Positions 3,680 to 44,581 of a DNA stretch of 64,000 nt are shown in pieces. The position numbers and the translations under genes are program-made. The notes below the pieces were generated by a model that ran no database searches, was not told the DNA's origin, and was given only the letters and a program-made list of their open reading frames with translations. Position 1 is the first letter of the stretch; each line of letters starts with the position of its first letter. The stretch is from NCBI RefSeq assembly GCF_003334405.1, contig NZ_QOWM01000005.1, one strand, 5' to 3'. The stretch is from Escherichia coli (GTDB taxonomy: Bacteria; Pseudomonadota; Gammaproteobacteria; Enterobacterales; Enterobacteriaceae).

Positions 3680-4786
3680 ATGAATAAAACAATAACGGCG
3701 CTTACTATCATAATGGCTTCATTTGCCGCAAACGCGTCTGTATTACCGGAAACTCCTGTGCCATTTAAAAGTGGTACCGGAGCAATTGATAACGACACTG
3801 TCTACATTGGTTTAGGTAGCGCAGGTACGGCATGGTACAAGCTGGATACACAGGCCAAAGATAAAAGATGGACAGCGTTAGCTGCATTCCCTGGCGGACC
3901 GAGAGATCAAGCAACCTCTGCATTTATTGATGGCAATCTGTATGTGTTTGGCGGCATTGGCAAAAACAGCGAGGGCTTGACTCAGGTATTTAATGACGTA
4001 CACAAATACAACCCCAAAACCAATAGCTGGGTTAAATTGATGTCGCACGCGCCGATGGGCATGGCGGGCCATGTGACTTTTGTACACAACGGCAAGGCTT
4101 ATGTTACTGGCGGTGTTAACCAGAATATCTTCAATGGCTATTTTGAAGATCTCAACGAAGCTGGAAAAGATTCAACCGCTATAGATAAAATCAACGCCTA
4201 CTATTTTGACAAAAAAGCAGAAGATTATTTCTTCAATAAGTTTCTGTTGTCTTTTGATCCCTCAACACAGCAATGGAGTTACGCTGGCGAATCTCCCTGG
4301 TACGGAACGGCTGGTGCGGCGGTTGTGAATAAAGGTGATAAAACCTGGCTTATTAATGGCGAAGCCAAACCAGGATTGCGAACGGATGCCGTATTTGAAC
4401 TTGACTTCACCGGTGATAATTTAAAATGGAATAAGCTTGATCCCGTCTCATCACCAGATGGCGTCGCTGGCGGTTTTGCGGGGATAAGCAATGATTCTCT
4501 TATATTTGCTGGAGGGGCCGGATTCAAAGGTTCACGAGAAAATTACCAGAACGGTAAGAACTATGCGCATGAAGGCCTGAAAAAATCATATAGCGTTGAT
4601 ATTCATCTTTGGTATAACGGGAAATGGGATAAATCGGGTGAATTATCGCAAGGTCGGGCCTACGGAGTATCATTGCCCTGGAATAATAGTTTATTAATTA
4701 TTGGCGGTGAAACTGCAGGCGGCAAAGCAGTGATGGATTCAGTTTTAATTTCTGTGAAGGATAATAAAGTCACAGTACAAAACTAA
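3680..4786 (+). CDS. nanM: N-acetylneuraminate mutarotase NanM (kelch-repeat beta-propeller, secreted)
   Basis: ATG at 3680 preceded by AGGAG at 3667-3671; signal peptide MNKTITALTIIMASFAANA; repeated GG/W kelch-like motifs; matches recalled YjhT/NanM. Confidence 0.85.
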   Translation: MNKTITALTIIMASFAANASVLPETPVPFKSGTGAIDNDTVYIGLGSAGTAWYKLDTQAKDKRWTALAAFPGGPRDQATSAFIDGNLYVFGGIGKNSEGLTQVFNDVHKYNPKTNSWVKLMSHAPMGMAGHVTFVHNGKAYVTGGVNQNIFNGYFEDLNEAGKDSTAIDKINAYYFDKKAEDYFFNKFLLSFDPSTQQWSYAGESPWYGTAGAAVVNKGDKTWLINGEAKPGLRTDAVFELDFTGDNLKWNKLDPVSSPDGVAGGFAGISNDSLIFAGGAGFKGSRENYQNGKNYAHEGLKKSYSVDIHLWYNGKWDKSGELSQGRAYGVSLPWNNSLLIIGGETAGGKAVMDSVLISVKDNKVTVQN

Positions 4787-7979: not shown

Positions 7980-8468
7980 TTACCAGTTGAAAGTGGGTAA
8001 ACCCGGCAGGCATTCAGCGCTGGCATCCAGATGAATGAGACTGACGCCATAACGTCGGGTAAGTGTGATAACCAGACGACGGAACGTTTTTGACAGCCCC
8101 AGGCGTTTAAGCCGCAGAACCGGATATGACCACGCATCGGTACGTAACAGATATCCGCTACCTGTGAAATGAATCCATTCTGATTCACCAACGTCACTGG
8201 TCTGATGCGACAGCGAGTACAGCCAGGCGTTATCCTTTTCCGTGATATGTGCGGTACTGCAGCGTATGCCGGCAAGGGTTGCAAACGGTGGTAGTGTGCA
8301 GGTTGACTGTTGGTCGGATTCCTCCACCACGCGGAGTGAATAACCGTTTTCAGCGACCTTGTTAATCAGTTCAGTGAGATTAACACCATCGACGTCAACG
8401 ACAATTCGCCCCATGTTCAGTGCCTGCACATTAATTCTGTCGGCTTCCAGCATCAGGGAAAGTTTCAT
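7980..8468 (-). CDS. YeeW-like hypothetical protein downstream of the CbtA-like toxin
   Basis: 162-aa ORF whose ATG overlaps the toxin gene stop (ATGA), occupying the position of the third gene in CP4-type yeeU-yeeV-yeeW clusters. Confidence 0.4.
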
Positions 8469-8839
8469 CGTTTCTCCGGATGCTTACCCAGGGTAATGTT
8501 ATTTACCGTTCTGTAATTGTCGCGGGTCATCAGGCCGGTCGCCCTGCGAGCCCGGAGGATATCAATACTGTTTATTAACTGAGAGCGGGGACAAGTGCTG
8601 AATCCCGGCTGGTCGGTACGCACCAGCGCGTATTTTTCCACGAGAAAATTCACCGCATCACACAGTGAAATGCCAGCTTCAATATGCTGCTCAATCACAC
8701 GTTCATCGGCGAACGGTGTGTCATTCAGTGTAAGGCCGTAATGCTGGCCCAGTAGTCGGGAGAGCAGAGTCTGCCAGATGGTGACGGGAGACGGGCAGCT
8801 CGATGCCTCCCGTACGTGTGTATCGGGTAATGTTTTCAT
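8465..8839 (-). CDS. CbtA/YkfI/YpjF-family toxin (type IV toxin-antitoxin, cytoskeleton-targeting)
   Basis: 124-aa ORF ...[56 protein letters not shown]... closely matching recalled CbtA-family toxins. Confidence 0.75.
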
Positions 8840-8928
8840 ACTGAAGGTTTTCCTGATATGCAGAGATGAAAAATGGAAAAGTGGCGTGGTGAAAGCACCA
8901 GGCCGGAGCAGAAGGTTATTCCGGTGGT

Positions 8929-9297
8929 TTACTTTTTCGTTTCGGGCGTCGGATAAACAGCCAGATAAACGTAACCACCGCTACCGAGAGTGTCAGCTTT
9001 GCAGGTCAGACCTTTTGCATACAGCGTGACGGTATGCTGATGGCGGGGATTCAGTTCACCGCTGGTGAGCATGAGTTCCAGTTGTTTCATCAGCAGCGGA
9101 AAGGCCTGGTCCAGGTGGTACGCATCTGCATCGCTGAACAGGCCTCTGATACCGGCGCGGTCGGCAAGGTAATGCAGGCGGTTACCCTCCTGCACCAGAC
9201 GGGCGCCGAAACAGGGCGTCACTGTGCAGGGTAGTCTCCACCAGGGATGGTCGTCATTGTCATCGGGATGCGTTGTCCCGGAAAGTGTGTCTGACAC
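8929..9297 (-). CDS. CbeA/YeeU/YfjZ-family antitoxin
   Basis: From GTG at 9295-9297: [52 protein letters not shown]...; immediately upstream of the toxin gene. Confidence 0.7.
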
Positions 9298-9459
9298 GAT
9301 AAAATCCTCACAGAAAATCGGTGAATGATAGTTTAACGATGACGGGTCAGCCGGCGCGCAGACCGGCTTCGGTAAAGGTGTATTCGTTGATGAGCAGGAC
9401 CTCATCCACAGCGGCGTCTGAGCTCAGCCAGTCGTACTCGTTTTCCGGGTGACGGAACA

Positions 9460-9678
9460 TCAGTTCAGGGTGACGCTCATCAGCCGGACATACGGACCAA
9501 AACTGTCCTTACGGCGTTCTGCAAACACGGCCAGCACACCGGGAATATCCTGCACTTCACGACCGGTATACGCTTCAGCACTGCCGTGCCAGCGGTATTT
9601 GCCGGTACAGAACGGAAAAAGACGGGATGCCGGATGCTGACGGTGAATACGCATGGCTTCGCCACGGGTGATGATTTT
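9460..9678 (-). CDS. YeeT/YkfH/YpjJ-family (DUF987-like) small protein
   Basis: 73-aa segment MKIITRGEAMRIHRQHPASRLFPFCTGKYRWHGSAEAYTGREVQDIPGVLAVFAERRKDSFGPYVRLMSVTLN, as recalled for CP4 prophage YeeT-like proteins. Confidence 0.6.
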   Translation of the reverse strand, partial: KIITRGEAMRIHRQHPASRLFPFCTGKYRWHGSAEAYTGREVQDIPGVLAVFAERRKDSFGPYVRLMSVTLN

Positions 9679-10149
9679 CATAGTGGGATACCTCTGAAGA
9701 CAGAAGATAAAAGTGAAAACAGGTGTGATGTGGTTGTGACGGGTTAAAGCAGACCATGTTCGGCAAAGGAGAAAACCTGGCTGCCACCGACTATCAGATG
9801 GTCCGGCACCCGGATAGCTGGAGGTACCGTCATGAGAGTTGAGCAGAATAATTTCAGGGACATGTTCTCCGTTTATCTCTCCGGCCCGCCGCAGACGCAG
9901 CATGTGTTTTGTGTATCCCCGGCGGCCCGGGTCGCGCACACGGGTCTGGCAGGCGAAGAATGGCTGAAAGCCTTCCCGCTGCAGGCTTTCCAGTACGGTG
10001 ATGGTGGGGATGTACGTATAGTTCTGGCTTCGGGACGTGTGTTTATCTTCCCCGAAAATCCCCGGCACATAGTGCATCAGTTCTTCGTGTGTCAGCGGAC
10101 GGTCACGGCGTATCTGGTTCGCATAACCAAAACGACTGGCTAGTCGCAT
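9679..10149 (-). pseudogene. Truncated DUF932-like (YfjQ-family) prophage gene, N-terminal fragment fused in frame to downstream sequence
   Basis: First ~110 aa MRLASRFGYANQIRRDRPLTHEELMHYVPGIFGEDKHTSRSQNYTYIPTITVLESLQREGFQPFFACQTRV...LLNSHDGTSSY match the recalled YfjQ-type N-terminus; the frame then becomes low-complexity and runs into the YeeT-like ORF. Confidence 0.4.
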
Positions 10150-10560
10150 AATTTGCTCCTTATCGGTGGTTAAGATTTACTGGTGTAATAAATGAAAAAG
10201 CCACGTCTCCCGGAGAAGACGCGGCCTGATGGGTGAAATGAATGACGTTTATTGTCTGAGAAGACCGTCACTGGCGAGCCGCGTATTAAGCACCTTTCCG
10301 GCATCGGGTTCAGAATTCCGGCAGCGCCAGCGTCGCTGACCTTCCGCGTTGCGGATAACCCGACGGAAATGCATTCCCGGGTCATCCTGGATAAACACAT
10401 TGCGGTAAGCGGTTATGACAGCAACCGCCTGCCCGTATGAGAAAGATCCTTCAGCCAGGACATACTCTGTGTAACCCGGCATATCTGTTTTCTCCTGATA
10501 AATAAAAAGCCTCTGCCACGCGTTGTGACAGAGGCTGAAGCATGAAACTGACTTCAGGGA

Positions 10561-11016
10561 TCAGTTAACGTTTTTTCCGGAAACGGTAATCAGCAGTGGA
10601 TGGTAGTCCTGGGGATTGAAAACCGATAACGGCAGACTGACACGATGGCCGTTACTTTCTTCAGTTGCTTTGATGATTTCGGTTGTGGCGACATTTTCCA
10701 CGCACTCCGTTTCCAGAAATGCGTCTGTGGTTCGCGTGGCATTACTGTCACCAAAAGCTTCCGTTTCCATTTTTCTGGTCACCAGCGTCTGACCATATTT
10801 GTCTTTGAGTTGCAGAGTGATGGTGAGGGGGCCAAATCCTTCATCGTTTCCGCCATTATCCAGCCGGAACTGGTAAGCACAAATATTTCCCGGGAGCCAT
10901 ATCGTATCTGTATTGCGTATACTGATGTAACGTTGATCCTGTGCCCGGAGTGGGGCAGACCACGTTAACCCCAGAATGAAGGCGGTAATCATGCAGGTTT
11001 TGAACAGGTGAATCAT
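10561..11016 (-). CDS. Hypothetical secreted protein (signal peptide)
   Basis: 151-aa ORF with hydrophobic N-terminal MITAFILGLTWSAPLRA followed by a polar domain; no motif recognised. Confidence 0.4.
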   Translation of the reverse strand: MIHLFKTCMITAFILGLTWSAPLRAQDQRYISIRNTDTIWLPGNICAYQFRLDNGGNDEGFGPLTITLQLKDKYGQTLVTRKMETEAFGDSNATRTTDAFLETECVENVATTEIIKATEESNGHRVSLPLSVFNPQDYHPLLITVSGKNVN

Positions 11017-11091
11017 GGTATTTACCTCTCTGAGTCATGACGATGACACTGACAAATCAGGTGATAAAGCGTAAAAGGCGCAGAATAGCCG

Positions 11092-13068
11092 TTATGCCGG
11101 TAACTCCGGGGGTAATGCTTCTTCCAGTCGGTTAACCATATTGCCGAGATGGGATGCATCATATTCCATGACGGGGCGTTGCCTGATGATACTGACCACC
11201 AGTGGTTTGATTAACATATTGGTCGCGGCCCGTTGTTGTATACCGGCGGCGAAAATGATCTCCAGAGCATTCTGATCGATAACACGGGCCAGATTCTCGT
11301 TCAGATTTTCAATCTCATGTCCGGTCAGCAGGAAACTGCCGGCAAGCCATGTCACCTGCTCCTGAATCATTGCCAGAATTTTGACGCGATCTTCTTCAAC
11401 CAGCGCTCCGGCAATTTTTCCTGATACAGCGGAGGCAATCATTCCCCCCAGAACACCGCCAACCACACGCCCTGTCAGTGCACCAAATGGTCCCAGTGGA
11501 CTGAACAGTATTCCGCCCGCCACTGACCCGACAGCACCACCTGCCACACCGGAAGATGCCACGGCAAGATTCCTGATGAACTGCGTACCGGAGATCCGTC
11601 CCCGCAACATTTTGATCATGTCAGGGCCGGTTGTGACAGCTACCAGTGCCAGAGATGTCACCAGCGTACCCTTCATCACTTTGTTCAGGGCACTGATATT
11701 TCCTGCACCGGTCCCCTTCTGAAGAGCCAGTCGAACAGTCGGGCTGGCAGTCGAAAAATCAATGTGCTTCAGCATACCCTGAACAACACTGAGCCGGTGG
11801 AGTTGCTGGGTTGTGACGTAGACAGCCAGTGTGCGGGTGAAGGTTTTTCCTGCCTGGACAGCAGCTGTCTGCAGGGCAGCATCGCGATCGCCGGTGCTGA
11901 GCCAGAAGACCGATGCCGTCAGGGCAAAACTGATCCCTCCGGCCGCCAGACTGACAACCGAACCCTCGGCAATATCATAAGTGACCGATTCGATGGTCCC
12001 GAACCGGGTGATATTACGGGCCTGAGTATAAGTCAGATGAGCCATACACGCGGCTTCCGTTATTCTGCCGGATTCGTATAACGCCCGGTAACCACCGTAA
12101 GCATCGGCCTGAAGCACACCGCTGTAACCGGCCAGGTGATTTTGTGGATGGATACCTTTCCGGTCCGGACTGTACGCGAACCAGACCGCCGGGGGCATCT
12201 GTGAACCGGCGTTACGGTCATCACGGACGTAGACCCACAGCCGGGCTGTCCGGGTTTTACCGCTGCCCGGCTCCTGGACCGGGACGGGGATATCATCAGC
12301 ATGGACTTTACCGGGCATCAGCACATACTGGCGCAGGACGTCATACAGCGGCTCCAGCAGTTCAGCAACAGCACCTGTCCAGCGCCCCAGTGTGGCACGG
12401 CTCAGCTCCACTCCCTGACGACGGTATATTTCTGACTGGCGGTATAACGGCAGATGGTCTGCATATTTCCCGGTGACAACATGGGCCAGAAGCCCCGCTC
12501 CGGCATAACTGCGTGCAATGGGTTTTGAAGGTACTGGTGCCTGCACGATATGGTCGCACCGGCAACAGGCCTGTTTCGGACGTTGTGTTTCGATAACCTT
12601 AAAGGCGCTGCTGATAAGCTCCAGTTGCTCTGACACATCACATCCCAGAGAACTGAGTTCACCACCACAGGCAGGACAGCATTCCTCTTCCGGCCGGATA
12701 ACCCGGGTTTCACGGGGAAGTGAGGCCGGTAACGGTTTACGGGCTGAAGACTGGCGCAGGGCGGATGGCAGTACCGGGTCATATTGCTCACCCAGCGTTT
12801 CCGCCATTTCTTCCTGAAGTGCGCTGATTCGCTCCTGTGCTTCCTGTATCTGCCGTTCGGTTTTTGCACGAAGTTTTTCTGAGCTTTTACCGAACTGCAT
12901 ACGTTGCAGTTTCGCAACCAGCGCCTTCAGCCGGTTGATTTCGGAAGCATAAGCCGCCACCCGCTGTGAGAGCAGGCGGTTGTATTCAGCCATCTGGCGG
13001 ATGGTGTCCTGTTGCGTCTGCAACAGTGCCCGCAGGCGGGCGTTCTCATGAGCAAGTGAGGTGTCCAT
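11092..13068 (-). pseudogene. Chimeric ORF: IS66-family TnpC (N-terminal ~340 aa) fused in frame to a glycine-rich C-terminal fragment of an unrelated protein
   Basis: N-terminal part has IS66 transposase hallmarks ([37 protein letters not shown]); after ...EAACMAHL the sequence diverges from the second TnpC copy at 14392-15777. Confidence 0.6.
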
Positions 13069-13087
13069 ATCCTCACTTTACAACGGG

Positions 13088-13435
13088 TTATATGCGGATT
13101 CCAGCGCGTTCCGTTCGTTTCGGGTGCTTCCAGTTGATACCTTCAAGAAGCATGGATAACTGAGCCGGAGTAAGGTGCACCTTGCCGTCACGGGTGACTG
13201 GCCAGACGAAGCGGCCCCGCTCCAGGCGTTTGGTGAAGAGGCACAGTCCGTCACTGTCAGCCCACAACACTTTTATCTGGTCACCCCGGCGTCCGCGGAA
13301 GATGAACAGGTGTCCGGAGAACGGGTCATCCTTCAGGACGTTCTGAACTTTTGATGCCAGGCCGTTAAAGCCATTTCGCATATCGGTGATACCTGCAACC
13401 AGCCAGATACGCGAACCTGCAGGGAGAGATATCAT
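13088..13435 (-). CDS. IS66-family accessory protein TnpB (Orf2)
   Basis: 115-aa ORF MISLPAGSRIWLVAGITDMRNGFNGLASKVQ...; paralogous to the plus-strand copy at 13995-14342. Confidence 0.8.
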   Translation of the reverse strand: MISLPAGSRIWLVAGITDMRNGFNGLASKVQNVLKDDPFSGHLFIFRGRRGDQIKVLWADSDGLCLFTKRLERGRFVWPVTRDGKVHLTPAQLSMLLEGINWKHPKRTERAGIRI

Positions 13436-13926
13436 CAGTGGCTGCTCCCTTTTATTTCGCGGATAAGTGTCTGTAATAACGCCGGCGTCAGTTTACCTTT
13501 AAGCCTGAGAGTTCCGGCCGGCAGAACCAGCTCACAACACAGACTGTCGGACGGTGTATTTATCTGCTCTGGTTCCTGTGCGGGGGCCGGGATTTTATTA
13601 TCCGGCTCCGGCGTTAACGTCACGGGAAGCAGTGCCGGCATATTTTTTCCGGAAGGCAGCAGGCCACCTTTCCGGTATTGATGGCGCCAGTTGAAGAGCA
13701 GGTTATCGTTGATTCCGTTTTCCCGGGCGATCTGCGCCACACAGGCTCCGGGCTGCAGTGACTGCTCCACTAAGGCGATTTTAAACTCATAAGGGAAGTT
13801 GGGCCGCCGGGGACGTTTTTTTACCACGGGGGCTTCGGATATAACGGTGCTTTCAGGACGTACGACTGGTACCGTGGAAAATTGTCCGTAACCCTCAGTA
13901 TCAGCTGTGAGGTAACGTTCCGGCAC
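13435..13926 (-). CDS. IS66-family TnpA (Orf1)
   Basis: 163-aa ORF immediately upstream of and overlapping tnpB, the typical IS66 three-ORF arrangement. Confidence 0.65.
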   Translation of the reverse strand: MPERYLTADTEGYGQFSTVPVVRPESTVISEAPVVKKRPRRPNFPYEFKIALVEQSLQPGACVAQIARENGINDNLLFNWRHQYRKGGLLPSGKNMPALLPVTLTPEPDNKIPAPAQEPEQINTPSDSLCCELVLPAGTLRLKGKLTPALLQTLIREIKGSSH

Positions 13927-13994
13927 GGGACGCTCCGCTTCAATGGCAATGTCAGCGAAAAGCTCCTGACTCTGCTGATACAGGAACTGAAGCG

Positions 13995-14342
13995 ATGATC
14001 CCGTTACCTTCCGGGACCAAAATTTGGCTGGTTGCCGGTATCACCGATATGAGAAATGGCTTCAACGGCCTGGCTGCGAAAGTACAAACGGCGCTGAAAG
14101 ACGATCCCATGTCCGGCCATGTTTTCATTTTCCGGGGCCGCAGCGGCAGTCAGGTTAAACTGCTGTGGTCCACCGGTGACGGACTGTGCCTCCTGACCAA
14201 ACGGCTGGAGCGTGGGCGCTTCGCCTGGCCGTCAGCCCGTGATGGCAAAGTGTTCCTTACGCAGGCGCAGCTGGCGATGCTGCTGGAAGGTATCGACTGG
14301 CGACAGCCCAAGCGGCTGCTGACCTCCCTGACCATGCTGTAA
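13995..14342 (+). CDS. IS66-family accessory protein TnpB (Orf2), second copy
   Basis: 115-aa ORF MIPLPSGTKIWLVAGITDMRNGFNGLAAKVQ... Confidence 0.8.
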   Translation: MIPLPSGTKIWLVAGITDMRNGFNGLAAKVQTALKDDPMSGHVFIFRGRSGSQVKLLWSTGDGLCLLTKRLERGRFAWPSARDGKVFLTQAQLAMLLEGIDWRQPKRLLTSLTML

Positions 14343-14391
14343 ATCTCTTTATCCTGGTTGTCACAGAATAAGCCCGGTAAAATACGGGCTT

Positions 14392-15777
14392 ATGAACGAC
14401 ATCTCTTCTGACGACATCTTCCTGCTAAAACAGCGCCTGGCCGAACAGGAAGCGCTGATCCACGCCCTGCAGGAAAAGCTGAGCAACCGGGAGCGCGAAA
14501 TAGACCATCTGCAGGCGCAGCTGGATAAACTCCGCCGGATGAACTTCGGCAGTCGTTCCGAAAAAGTCTCCCGCCGTATCGCACAAATGGAAGCCGATCT
14601 GAACCGGCTTCAGAAAGAGAGCGATACGCTGACTGGTAGGGTGTATGACCCGGCAGTACAGCGTCCGTTGCGTCAGACCCGCACCCGTAAGCCGTTCCCT
14701 GAATCACTACCCCGTGACGAAAAGCGACTGTTGCCTGCGGCGCCGTGCTGCCCGAACTGCGGCGGTTCACTGAGCTATCTGGGCGAGGATACCGCCGAAC
14801 AGCTGGAGTTGATGCGTAGCGCATTCCGGGTTATCCGGACGGTACGGGAAAAACATGCCTGTACTCAGTGCGATGCCATCGTGCAGGCACCTGCACCTTC
14901 GCGGCCCATCGAGCGGGGTATCGCCGGACCGGGGCTGCTGGCCCGCGTGCTGACCTCGAAGTATGCAGAGCACACCCCGCTGTATTGCCAGTCAGAAATA
15001 TACGGCCGGCAAGGTGTGGAGCTGAGCCGTTCACTGCTGTCAGGCTGGGTGGATGCATGCTGCCGGCTGCTGTCTCCGCTGGAAGAGGCGCTTCATGGCT
15101 ATGTCATGACTGACGGCAAACTCCATGCCGATGATACCCCGGTCCAGGTACTGCTGCCGGGTAATAAGAAGACGAGGACCGGGCGGTTGTGGGCGTATGT
15201 TCGTGATGACCGCAATGCCGGGTCAGCGTTGGCACCTGCAGTGTGGTTCGCTTACAGCCCGGACAGAAAAGGCATCCATCCGCAGACTCATCTTGCTTGC
15301 TTCAGCGGTGTGCTGCAAGCGGATGCGTACGCCGGGTTCAACGAGCTGTATCGCAATGGTGGGATAACGGAAGCTGCCTGCTGGGCTCATGCCCGCCGAA
15401 AGATCCACGATGTGCACGTCCGCATCCCGTCAGCACTGACGGAAGAAGCCCTGGAGCAGATCGGTCAGTTGTACGCCATAGAGGCGGATATAAGGGGAAT
15501 GCCGGCAGAGCAGCGGCTTGCTGAACGTCAGCGAAAAACGAAACCGCTGTTGAAATCCCTGGAAAGCTGGTTGCGTGAAAAGATGAAGACCCTGTTCTTC
15601 GGCTCTGGCCATGGTGGTGAGCGGGGAGCGCTACTGTACAGCCTGATCGGGACGTGCAAACTGAATGACGTGGATCCAGAAAGCTACCTTCGCCATGTGC
15701 CTGGCGTCATAGCAGACTGGCCGGTCAACCGGGTCAGCGAACTGCTTCCGTGGCGCATAGCACTGCCAGCTGAATAA
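14392..15777 (+). CDS. IS66-family transposase TnpC, second copy (apparently full length)
   Basis: 461-aa ORF with MNFGSRSEKV, CCPNCGGSL, HADDTPVQVL, LWAYVRDDR, EAACWAHARRK motifs. Confidence 0.8.
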   Translation: MNDISSDDIFLLKQRLAEQEALIHALQEKLSNREREIDHLQAQLDKLRRMNFGSRSEKVSRRIAQMEADLNRLQKESDTLTGRVYDPAVQRPLRQTRTRKPFPESLPRDEKRLLPAAPCCPNCGGSLSYLGEDTAEQLELMRSAFRVIRTVREKHACTQCDAIVQAPAPSRPIERGIAGPGLLARVLTSKYAEHTPLYCQSEIYGRQGVELSRSLLSGWVDACCRLLSPLEEALHGYVMTDGKLHADDTPVQVLLPGNKKTRTGRLWAYVRDDRNAGSALAPAVWFAYSPDRKGIHPQTHLACFSGVLQADAYAGFNELYRNGGITEAACWAHARRKIHDVHVRIPSALTEEALEQIGQLYAIEADIRGMPAEQRLAERQRKTKPLLKSLESWLREKMKTLFFGSGHGGERGALLYSLIGTCKLNDVDPESYLRHVPGVIADWPVNRVSELLPWRIALPAE

Positions 15778-16015
15778 CACATCCCCGTCAATACGGCCCT
15801 CGCTGTACGCTTACTTTTGTTCGGACTGCTTATGGCCTTTTTCCACTGGTGTAGCAGGAAAGTTAACCGGCTGCCACCATGAGATGACGTGTAAACCGTG
15901 CAGGCATGTTTTCACGTGGTGACGCTTTCATTGGGGGTCTACGCCGGAACCCCAATATTGTTCACATACATGAATTTGAAAAACTAAGCGATACTGCTGT
16001 CCGTACCTTATAAAC

Positions 16016-17389
16016 TTATTTCAACGCTTCCGGCAGCGTCACAATCCACAGTTCACTGTCAGACTCCGGTTTCTCCAGTGGCTTCACTCTGAGGGTCGTT
16101 TCAACCTGCTTGTCGTCAAGCGTCAGCTTTCCTTCCGCGTTCACCCGATAATCCTTGAATGTCTTGCCCTCGACCGGATGTTGCATCGCCACCTTCACGC
16201 CAAAGTCGTTATCGTTCGCCACCGCCAGCGTTTTGCTGTCGATCAGCGCCAACCCTTCAGCCTTCTCCTGCTGCCAGCCCAAGGAGCGCAGATCAACAAC
16301 CTGCGTTTTCTGCGCAAGGGTAATGCCGCGCTGTGACAGGGTTTTCTCATCATCAAACTCCGGATACTCACCCGGCTTGTCGAAGCCTGACAGGTCGCTC
16401 GCCTTATTGAGATCGACCTCGTAAATCAGGTTACGCATTCTGTTGTTTTTATCTCTTCCCTGTTCGATCAGCAGGATGTGCTGGTTATCGAGCGCCACGA
16501 TGTCTCCGATTTTAGCGTCGCTGTTTTTGCTGTAGGCCGCGCTGTCGATAGGATAACCGTACATCGCGGTTTTTCCGCTTGCCGGATCGAAGCTCACCAG
16601 ACGCGTAAACAGCGCCTTTTTCTTGCTCTTAGCGTCGATATCCAGCGTACTTTGCACGGCGACAATAATACGCCCGTCCGGCATACGGGTGAGGCCTTCA
16701 AAGCCGCGGTTCGCCTGACGCCATTTGAGGATATTTGGCAAACCGCCCGCAATCGCTTTTTCCCCTTCCGCCGCCTGCGGACCGTGGATTGCCAGGATTT
16801 TCCCTTTACTGTCGATGTTAATCAGGAACGGGCCATACTCATCGCACAGCCAGTAACCTCCTTTACCATCCGGAGTGATCCCTTCCGTATCCAGCCCGCG
16901 ATTATCCCCCTTCAGTCTATGTAACGTGTCGCTGAAGGCCACTTCATTGGTGGAGCCAATCACGTCGCTTGCCAGCGGCAGACCGTTGATCGCGCCTTTA
17001 TCGTCATGCAGAGGACGAGGATCGATGGCCTCCGCTTTGCCGTTTTGTACACGAATCGTCATCAGCAGCGGCGCGAAATCTGGCGTAACGAAAATTTTAG
17101 TTTCGTTTTTCCCCTCTTTCGGTGAATCCGCGTTCGGACCGCGATCGGTAATGGTTGCGAATGTCAGGGCATCGCCCTGTTTACCGGTGAACAGCAGGCC
17201 AGAACCTATCCCAACCGGAAGGCCGTTCGGGAATGCACTGGCAAATGCGCCGGCGTAGTTCACGTGCGTGCCTTCTGGAAAACTGACGACATAGCGCTCA
17301 GCCGTAGGTTGTGCCGCCAGGGCAGAGAAAGAGAGCGTACAACCGATTAGCACGGGAATAATTTTTCTTTTCATATTGTTAGCATCCAT
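16016..17389 (-). CDS. Secreted hypothetical protein, possibly phytase-like/esterase-like beta-propeller
   Basis: 457-aa ORF with signal peptide MKRKIIPVLIGCTLSFSALAA; repetitive GxxG/D-rich blades; domain assignment from memory only. The true start may be the internal ATG at 17374. Confidence 0.45.
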   Translation of the reverse strand: MDANNMKRKIIPVLIGCTLSFSALAAQPTAERYVVSFPEGTHVNYAGAFASAFPNGLPVGIGSGLLFTGKQGDALTFATITDRGPNADSPKEGKNETKIFVTPDFAPLLMTIRVQNGKAEAIDPRPLHDDKGAINGLPLASDVIGSTNEVAFSDTLHRLKGDNRGLDTEGITPDGKGGYWLCDEYGPFLINIDSKGKILAIHGPQAAEGEKAIAGGLPNILKWRQANRGFEGLTRMPDGRIIVAVQSTLDIDAKSKKKALFTRLVSFDPASGKTAMYGYPIDSAAYSKNSDAKIGDIVALDNQHILLIEQGRDKNNRMRNLIYEVDLNKASDLSGFDKPGEYPEFDDEKTLSQRGITLAQKTQVVDLRSLGWQQEKAEGLALIDSKTLAVANDNDFGVKVAMQHPVEGKTFKDYRVNAEGKLTLDDKQVETTLRVKPLEKPESDSELWIVTLPEALK

Positions 17390-17654
17390 AAAGTGAAGAT
17401 CACACTACACCATAAAGAAGAAACGAGTCAGGAAAATGACATCGAATGGCAACATGCGCGGGCCTGAGGCCAAAGAAATGTAAAACACTGTTGTTATTTG
17501 TAACAACGGAAACATTTACGGAAATTATTTGTCTTTCTTCGTGATCAAAAATGCTGTGTCTTGTTGGATTGGAGTGATGAGGGCTGCGTTTAGGAAACGC
17601 CCTATATTGTACGGTTGCATTATCGCGGTAGGGGTAATGCACGTGTCAGTATGA

Positions 17655-17786: not shown

Positions 17787-18011
17787 AGTTCACAGATAAA
17801 ACACTCTCCAGGAAACCCGGGGCGGTTCACTTAGCCGCGTGTCCATTATTGCTGGATAAGATCAGTCAATAATAGCAGACCAACCACATCATGAGTCATT
17901 CTGACCGACACATGCCAGAAGCAGAGGCTCCATCCCATTTTATACCTACCTTATAACACTTAGAAAAACAACATGTTAAAAATGTCTATTGGAAACAATT
18001 TTATTTCCAAT

Positions 18012-18074: not shown

Positions 18075-18592
18075 ATGTCTGACCGCGCCACTACCACAGC
18101 TTCCTTAACGTTCGAGTCGCTTTATGGCACACATCACGGCTGGTTGAAAAGCTGGCTGACGCGCAAACTCCAGTCTGCTTTTGATGCAGATGACATTGCC
18201 CAGGACACTTTTTTGCGGGTAATGGTCAGCGAAACGCTCTCGACGATCCGCGATCCTCGCTCCTTCCTCTGCACTATCGCCAAACGCGTGATGGTGGACC
18301 TGTTTCGCCGAAACGCGCTGGAAAAAGCGTATCTGGAGATGCTGGCGCTTATGCCGGAGGGGGGAGCGTCTTCACCTGAGGAACGCGAAAGCCAACTCGA
18401 GACCCTACAACTCCTCGACAGCATGCTGGACGGGCTAAACGGCAAAACACGTGAAGCGTTTCTGCTTTCGCAACTGGATGGTCTGACATACAGCGAGATT
18501 GCGCACAAACTCGGTGTTTCCATCAGCTCCGTGAAAAAATACGTGGCGAAAGCCGTCGAGCACTGCCTGCTGTTCCGTCTGGAGTATGGGTT

Positions 18593-44496: not shown

Positions 44497-44581
44497 TGGT
44501 GCCGAAGGCCGGACTCGAACCGGCACGTATTTCTACGGTTGATTTTGAATCAACTGCGTCTACCGATTTCGCCACTTCGGC
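44497..44581 (-). tRNA. leuX: tRNA-Leu (CAA anticodon), leuX
   Basis: Reverse complement reads GCCGAAGTGGCGAAATCGGTAGACGCAGTTGATTCAAAATCAACCGTAGAAATACGTGCCGGTTCGAGTCCGGCCTTCGGCACCA, 85 nt with CAA anticodon, long variable arm and encoded CCA. Confidence 0.9.

Follow-up and report, generated by a model that had tools for sequence, protein, structure and literature searches.

Truncated ISCro1 and ISEc8 elements and an in-frame tnpC-yeeR fusion in a genomic island of Escherichia coli

The stretch of Escherichia coli DNA analysed here (64 kb, referred to as the window) carries two head-to-head elements of the IS66 family at 12037-15814, each cut short where it meets the other, as a first-pass annotation had proposed. 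They are bordered on the left by the remainder of yeeR and by irmA. The following features were recognised:

10561-11016, minus strand: irmA, intact, IrmA family protein of 151 aa, directly downstream of the chimeric ORF
11092-13068, minus strand: chimeric ORF of 658 aa, ISCro1 TnpC 1-344 followed by YeeR 524-838
11092-12039, minus strand: 3' 948 nt of yeeR (codons 524-838 and stop), the glycine-zipper, hydrophobic C-terminal part
12037-12039: junction J1 between yeeR and ISCro1 tnpC, microhomology of 3 nt (ATG on the plus strand)
12037-13891, minus strand: ISCro1 remnant, 1,855 of 2,698-2,699 bp, 100% identity
13088-13435, minus strand: ISCro1 tnpB, intact, NCBIfam IS66_TnpB match
13890-13891: junction J2 between ISCro1 tnpA nt 222 and ISEc8 tnpA nt 273, microhomology of 2 nt
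13890-15814, plus strand: ISEc8 remnant, 1,925 of 2,442 bp, 99.5% identity to ISEc8 in comparison locus L004
13995-14342, plus strand: ISEc8 tnpB, intact
14392-15777, plus strand: ISEc8 tnpC with internal deletion
15591-15595, plus strand: junction J3 in ISEc8 tnpC, 153-bp in-frame deletion flanked by the repeat CCTGT
15802-15814: right terminal repeat (IRR) of ISEc8, GTAAGCGTACAGC in minus-strand reading, IRL and IRR being set from L004 at 4713 and 7154

Intact ISCro1, a member of the IS66 family, measures 2,698-2,699 bp and comprises tnpA (225 aa), tnpB (115 aa) and tnpC (523 aa). The minus-strand copy of the window is 100% identical to copies in many E. coli genomes (compared with copies in loci L003, L004 and L006) and keeps the order tnpA-tnpB-tnpC, but only 69% of the element is left, with neither terminal repeats nor target duplication; both ends, defined in relatives by inverted repeats (GTAAGCG...) and 8-bp target duplications, lie outside the retained 12037-13891. 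This copy had been credited with tnpA and tnpB, which is correct for the complete tnpB, whereas tnpA has lost its first 221 nt (74 codons). The remaining tnpA sequence matches NCBIfam IS66_access_TnpA, and the 163-aa ORF of this region (13435-13926) is read across the junction, its first 12 codons being foreign. TnpC sequence ends after codon 344, codons 345-523 being gone, and the DDE_Tnp_IS66 domain is incomplete (Pfam positions 1-156/284). What remains derives from ISCro1 but is no functional member of the family.

Beyond codon 344 the tnpC frame continues into foreign sequence, and the claimed in-frame fusion after about 340 aa is confirmed: residues 1-344, 100% identical to ISCro1 TnpC, are followed by 314 unrelated glycine-rich residues. 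The C-terminal part matched residues 524-838 of WP_249478031.1, a YeeR, with 312 of 315 identities (99%, BLASTP), and in a three-way sequence comparison the J1 microhomology, read on the minus strand, is His344 of TnpC as well as His524 of YeeR. The TnpC part keeps a leucine zipper and a zinc finger, and hydrophobic segments are found at residues 369-390 and 535-557 of the ORF. The earlier suggestion that an island gene was destroyed and left its 3' end as the fused fragment was borne out, the gene being yeeR and not, as had been guessed, a CP4-type GTPase; neither Pfam nor NCBIfam gave a GTPase match in the ORF. In relatives the CP4-type island GTPase (YeeP/YkfA-like) is a separate gene of about 290 aa upstream of flu, two genes away, and is deleted in the window. 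Public records contain the exact 658-aa protein (e.g., OWD78755.1, HAH2859386.1), labelled 'IS66 family transposase' or 'hypothetical protein'. The former label, as well as a match to NCBIfam transpos_IS66 above cutoff, would agree with an ordinary transposase of full length from a divergent subgroup of IS66, but we give this reading practically no credence. The family match (profile positions 5-230/387) stops at residue 345, the Pfam DDE match ends at 156 of 284 positions, the nucleotide break is sharp and from residue 344 to residue 658 the sequence is that of the YeeR C-terminus (99% identity). Each half belongs to a distinct, well-documented protein (100% and 99% identity), which makes the ORF a chimera rather than a divergent transposase.

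The full-length YeeR-family inner-membrane protein has 838 aa with an N-terminal transmembrane region, a central domain and a glycine-zipper C-terminus, of which the window keeps only residues 524-838. For this tail Pfam gave weak matches to C19orf12 (0.009) and Gly-zipper, and searches of NCBIfam, PDB sequences and Rfam returned nothing on its function. For YeeR, weak matches in Pfam, PHROGs and PADLOC comprised C19orf12 (0.009), a tape-measure protein (1e-3) and PDC-M09B (9e-6), the last falling on the central domain, which is absent from the window. The precomputed PF27347 is recorded on N-terminal YeeR fragments of relatives and, of the three forms with internal deletions listed, two (P0021, P0006) lack it, which suggests that it lies outside the part of YeeR retained here. 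The intact irmA does not differ from the copies annotated 'IrmA family protein' in the O26:H11 and GE3 islands (100% identity), Pfam IrmA is recorded on loci identical to it, and the whole of 10400-12039 is 100% identical to 8001-9640 of comparison locus L002. In the flu-yeeR-irmA (aec69) cluster of CP4-44-type islands the three genes are co-transcribed (PMC6480617). The window shares with it irmA and the last 315 yeeR codons, at 100% nucleotide identity to O26-/GE3-type islands, but lacks flu and yeeR codons 1-523, so that irmA stands without its normal upstream partners. The converse truncation is seen in E. coli K-12, in which YeeR consists of residues 1-507 of the full-length protein and the C-terminus and irmA are lost.

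The plus-strand copy derives from ISEc8 (IS66 family; 2,442 bp; TnpC 512 aa). In keeping with the first annotation, which saw a terminal repeat but no tnpA, it has lost nearly all of tnpA and carries a terminal repeat at one end: the left 364 bp, that is IRL and most of tnpA (nt 1-272), are missing in the window lineage, 109 of 381 nt of tnpA are left, and the repeat at 15802-15814 is the sole match to the ISEc8 terminal repeat in the window. The TnpC, by contrast, was wrongly taken to be full. It has 461 aa compared with 512 aa in intact ISEc8, the deletion at J3 having taken 51 residues (401-451) out of the DDE domain, among them the block WVEIDNNIAENAL...GRKN, and Pfam DDE_Tnp_IS66 covers positions 1-222/284 compared with 1-283/284 in the intact protein; moreover, it carries substitutions (e.g., R190C) at sites where the TnpC proteins compared show no variation. 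The window thus carries a common island-borne variant of ISEc8: all related islands examined (O26, E04, E275a, GE3, RS571) have tnpC with the 153-bp deletion annotated at this position, J3 has 100% matches in many complete genomes, and the exact 461-aa TnpC occurs on 798 contigs. In O26, E04, E275a and GE3 the right repeat likewise adjoins a DUF6404 remnant and a phytase-like gene.

We infer that neither element can transpose, since ISCro1 is left without ends, ISEc8 has one end and both DDE domains are incomplete. A DNNxAEN block common to the three intact TnpC proteins compared is missing from both TnpC proteins of the window. Going by the general description of the family (ISfinder; Gourbeyre et al. 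2010) and by Pfam coverage, the catalytic glutamate of IS66 TnpC, the third acidic residue, would lie in this block; the literature searched gave nothing usable on the DDE residues of IS66.

The two elements had also been called nested, but they are juxtaposed and neither lies inside the other. Nested insertion was ruled out, as relatives carry both elements separately, each with its own ends, at a spacing of 2.4 kb or, in other contexts, of 40-290 bp; the 2.4 kb between ISCro1 and ISEc8 in related leuX and pheV islands is a module with Gp2 and zinc-ribbon genes. Since all homologous segments share 99-100% nucleotide identity over kilobases, chance is no issue. At the junctions, segments of 99.5-100% identity overlap by 2-5 nt. 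No IS terminus lies at J1 or J2, and IS-mediated adjacent deletion was therefore rejected for both. An identical 14-kb structure (100% identity) is shared by no fewer than four independent draft assemblies of E. coli (GCA_002190105.1, GCA_003334405.1, ERR3469010, SRR3823652), which shows that the structure is real and lineage-specific; an assembly artefact is ruled out by the complete identity of these four loci from different samples. The same layout is absent from 5,426 complete E. coli genomes. A contiguous match to J1 was found neither in these genomes nor in GTDB representative genomes or metagenome contigs, and a contiguous match to J2 was lacking among the matches listed from complete E. 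coli genomes, each of which was in two pieces.

In the region 12037-15814, ISCro1 and ISEc8, two insertion sequences well known from E. coli, survive as wrecks, a case of ordinary genome decay. The preferred explanation, to which we assign a probability of about 0.88, is a scar of two deletions in a leuX-associated CP4-44-type island. Its starting point we infer from the gene order of relatives, namely O26:H11 11368, E275a, RS571 and GE3. In the orientation of the window, the ancestor would have carried on the left irmA(-), yeeR(-), flu/Ag43(-), the GTPase gene(-), further genes up to an HTH gene(-), and ISCro1(-), and on the right Gp2(+), two zinc-ribbon genes(+), ISEc8 with the 153-bp tnpC deletion(+) and a phytase-like esterase gene(-), followed at a distance by fecIRABCDE. 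One RecA-independent deletion of approximately 12 kb at 3 nt of homology would have joined yeeR codon 523 to ISCro1 tnpC codon 345, removing flu, the GTPase gene and the right end of ISCro1; yeeR and ISCro1 tnpC being collinear, the frame would have been kept by chance, with odds of one in three. Another of approximately 2.9 kb, likewise RecA-independent and at 2 nt of homology, would have joined ISCro1 tnpA nt 221 to ISEc8 tnpA nt 272, removing the left ends of both elements together with the Gp2/zinc-ribbon module. As the 5,426 complete E. coli genomes (for J2, the matches listed) yielded no intermediate with a single one of these deletions, the order of these events, their sizes and the exact ancestor are reconstructed from relatives. 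Compared with O26, the lineage carries two more deletions, at 9815/9816 and 17864/17865, which fits a general reductive decay of the island.

A different route to the same non-functional end product would start from an ancestor with a plus-oriented ISCro1, as in O26:H11 11368. If a segment broken in yeeR and in tnpC were inverted, J1 would result, and one large deletion from ISCro1 tnpA to ISEc8 tnpA would then create J2 and remove the rest of the inverted segment. Such an ancestor is brought to mind by the left flank, which is 100% identical to O26, and by the ISEc8-phytase flank, which among three loci compared is nearest to O26 (8 mismatches in 3,943 bp compared with 15-17 for E04 and E275a); since ISCro1 is oppositely oriented in O26, it would require an inversion in addition to a deletion. 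However, the left flank is also 100% identical to many non-O26 genomes, and inversion at 3 nt of homology is rarer than deletion. E275a, RS571 and others carry at this position the minus-oriented ISCro1 required for two simple deletions, in E275a and RS571 upstream of Gp2 with intact 8-bp target duplications. Furthermore, at least three independent insertions of ISCro1 took place here, so its orientation is no stable lineage marker. We therefore regard the inversion as unlikely.

Whether the chimeric ORF has a role was weighed separately, and it is most likely a non-functional pseudogene product. It could be imagined that read-through from the upstream minus-strand phytase-like gene yields a membrane-tethered, catalytically dead TnpC that binds the ISCro1 ends of other copies and inhibits their transposition in trans, or that translation of the ORF drives the downstream irmA. 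Truncated transposases are established inhibitors in other IS families, and the native tnpB-tnpC junction with the start and ribosome-site context of tnpC is kept behind an intact tnpB. The leucine zipper, zinc finger and hydrophobic glycine-zipper segments of YeeR are likewise retained, the long frame is undisrupted in at least four assemblies, and irmA follows after 75 bp with a strong terminator only behind it. The four loci are, however, 100% identical over 14 kb, so that conservation of the frame reflects recent common descent rather than selection. With IRL and the 5' part of tnpA the native promoter region of the IS has been lost, and the minus strand at 11016-17600 showed no sigma-70-like promoter site. 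In-frame joining is expected by chance in one of three cases, and another read-through chimera, DUF932::yeeT, was formed by a deletion close by, which demonstrates that such ORFs arise here without selection. An expressed and functional fusion is hence very improbable, more so than the inversion.

Decay of island IS copies at short homologies is a kind of structure already known. As in other decaying islands and cryptic prophages subject to short-homology (illegitimate) deletion, the junctions of the window share 2-5 nt, no IS end lies at the breakpoints and several independent deletions fall within 8 kb; no notable difference was seen, the in-frame ORF of transposase and membrane protein being a by-product. 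Annotations should mark the 658-aa ORF as a pseudogene in which ISCro1 tnpC is fused to yeeR. Because they were not found in complete genomes (J2 among the matches listed), J1 and J2 are together a candidate marker of this E. coli lineage; the deletions at 9815/9816 and 17864/17865 may be missing from other genomes too. Its leuX island has lost Ag43 (flu) and full-length YeeR, and irmA, reported as a vaccine-antigen gene, is split from its promoter, with a possible bearing on how these strains are typed for biofilm or antigens.

The region is E. coli chromosome, with tRNA-Leu(CAA) leuX at window 44497-44581, and the IS66 remnants sit in a leuX-associated island, with a minus-strand CP4-44-type module (cbtA/cbeA, yeeT, DUF932, DUF905, irmA) on one side and, on the other, a gene for a phytase-like esterase and then fecIRABCDE (fecI at 18075). 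Compared with annotated relatives by BLAST, window 10400-16200 resolved into three blocks with sharp edges, listed here with the features they carry:

10400-12039: block 1, 100% identity to the island of O26:H11 11368 (O26), also to that of the relative GE3
10561-11016, minus strand: irmA, inside block 1
11092-13068, minus strand: chimeric ORF, 658 aa
12037-13891: block 2, 100% identity to ISCro1
13088-13435, minus strand: ISCro1 tnpB, intact
13890-15814: block 3, 99.5% identity to ISEc8, lacking 153 bp at 15591-15595
13995-14342, plus strand: ISEc8 tnpB, intact

Comparison of the junction sequences revealed overlaps of 3 nt (ATG), 2 nt (AA) and 5 nt (CCTGT) and an IS terminus at none of the three; an Rfam search of the region gave no match. 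The BLAST blocks and the identities within the chimeric ORF bear out the first-pass annotation in its outline of truncated IS66 copies with a chimeric TnpC ORF: residues 1-344 are identical to ISCro1 TnpC (523 aa; 344/344), and residues 344-658 match residues 524-838 of WP_249478031.1 (838 aa; 312/315 identical). The latter is full-length YeeR, to the first 507 residues of which K-12 YeeR (510 aa) is identical at 500 of 507 positions. The tail is YeeR and not the CP4-type GTPase once guessed, which relatives encode in a gene of its own upstream of flu and which is absent here. Block 1 also holds the final 948 nt of the gene between Ag43 and irmA, annotated 'hypothetical protein'. Members of the YeeR family (~820-850 aa; precomputed Pfam PF27347) are widespread across Proteobacteria; yeeR is truncated in K-12 and forms a single transcription unit with flu and irmA (PMC6480617). 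The IS66 domains of the ORF (LZ_Tnp_IS66, zf-IS66, DDE_Tnp_IS66; Pfam, NCBIfam) end at residue 345, with the DDE match covering model positions 1-156 of 284; the profile search proposed for the tail, which contains hydrophobic segments, returned weak glycine-zipper and C19orf12 matches and nothing stronger.

The K-12 gene (locus L007, 5780-7312) is cut at residue 507. In-frame internal yeeR deletions, spanning residues about 244-523, 392-483 and 351-532, removed parts of the central domain in other E. coli (proteins P0021, P0003, P0006), as found by a protein search that favours in-frame events. The P0021 break, between ..SRG and HLTYTQ.., lies within a few nucleotides of the window break at His524, a proximity that could be coincidental or point to a hot spot for deletions there. 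The central domain of full-length YeeR (locus L001, 10233-12749; residues 410-552, with the motif GHGFAAERGNH...NGADR) weakly matches PDC-M09B, a candidate defence family in PADLOC (E = 9e-6); this domain has no counterpart in the window.

Four intact ISCro1 copies, from which ends and 8-bp target duplications were taken, are bounded by GTAAGCGACTCG... and ...GAGCCGGTTAC (2,698-2,699 bp); the window retains 1,855 bp and neither end. The tnpA credited to this copy lacks nt 1-221, so that a 163-aa ORF at 13435-13926 opens with 12 codons of ISEc8 antisense sequence. Nor are the two elements nested: their blocks adjoin at 13890-13891. An intact ISEc8 (locus L004, repeats at 4713 and 7154) measures 2,442 bp; of this the window copy has the right repeat, whose last position is 15814, and 109 nt of tnpA. 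Its supposedly full TnpC has 461 aa versus 512 in the intact element, residues 401-451 being lost in frame, including a block, ...WVEIDNNIAENAL...GRKN, common to TnpC of ISEc8, ISCro1 and ISEc22, in which we take the third catalytic acidic residue of IS66 TnpC to lie. Pfam DDE coverage falls from 1-283 to 1-222 of 284, and positions invariant across the compared TnpC proteins are substituted, e.g. R190C. IS66 transposition reportedly requires all three genes; given the established requirements of the family, we infer that both remnants are immobile, because one has no end and the other a single end, and the DDE domain is incomplete in each.

The 153-bp deletion is an old one: every related island examined (O26, E04, E275a, GE3, RS571) has the 461-aa tnpC annotated in this place, the junction has 100% matches in many complete genomes, and the exact protein occurs on 798 contigs. 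The fusion structure is real and restricted to a small lineage. The exact 658-aa protein has public records, among them OWD78755.1 and HAH2859386.1, and occurs on 10 contigs, and four loci (GCA_002190105.1, GCA_003334405.1, ERR3469010, SRR3823652) agree with the window at 100% identity across 4-14 kb; the yeeR/tnpC junction found no match in 5,426 complete E. coli genomes, GTDB species representatives or metagenome contigs.

The undamaged gene order can, by comparison, be obtained from relatives such as GE3: irmA, yeeR (838 aa), agn43, GTPase, YfjI, hypothetical protein, HTH, (IS3), hypothetical protein, Gp2, two Zn-ribbon genes, ISEc8 with the tnpC deletion, DUF6404 remnant, phytase-like gene. 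In E275a (leuX island) and RS571 (pheV island) ISCro1 lies directly upstream of Gp2 in minus orientation, with intact target duplications (CGGTAACC and CATTAAAA, respectively), an orientation that makes yeeR and tnpC collinear. One deletion of ~12 kb, from yeeR codon 523 to tnpC codon 345, would then have produced the yeeR/tnpC junction, and one of ~2.9 kb (2,915 bp as measured on E275a) the ISCro1/ISEc8 tnpA junction. O26 also carries ISCro1 nearby, in the opposite orientation (duplication CGCTGCTT), and an O26-type ancestor is a much less likely source, as inversion plus deletion would be required. Among the complete E. coli genome matches listed, no intermediate with one of the two deletions was present.

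At least three separate ISCro1 insertions, with differing target duplications and in both orientations, fall in one ~1-kb stretch of CP4-type islands that is bounded by HTH/Hha genes on one side and an inovirus-Gp2-family gene on the other and may be an insertion hot spot; copies lie at comparison loci L006 25137-27835 (CGCTGCTT), L008 11431-14129 (CGGTAACC) and L013 18431-21129 (CATTAAAA). In E04 (L003 3431-6129) ISCro1 adjoins ISEc8 with an unmatched target duplication (GGTGCTTT vs CCCTGTGA) and the Gp2/Zn-ribbon module is absent, which suggests an ISCro1-associated rearrangement separate from that of the window.

Further deletions lie nearby. At 9815/9816, 1,443 bp are missing relative to O26 and GE3, with 2-nt homology (TA); the lost stretch held the antirestriction gene, the bulk of JAB/yeeS and the 3' portion of the DUF932 gene, and a second read-through chimera resulted (229 aa, 9460-10149, minus strand), joining the DUF932 N-terminus, junk and, in frame, YeeT/DUF987. 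At 17864/17865, between the phytase-like gene and fecI, ~2 kb of O26, E04 and E275a (a YmgB/AriR-family gene, IS3/IS5 debris, IS1F) are absent; no IS end occurs at this junction, the fourth deletion within 8 kb in the window lineage relative to the compared genomes.

The native ISCro1 promoter region (IRL and tnpA 5') is deleted, and a simple scan of the minus strand from irmA to the phytase-like gene turned up nothing resembling a sigma-70 site, with a strong terminator downstream of irmA and not before it. For the fusion ORF the best reading is a pseudogene product that is in frame by accident; irmA probably either is silenced or relies on read-through, and the region is one of ordinary decay of known elements.
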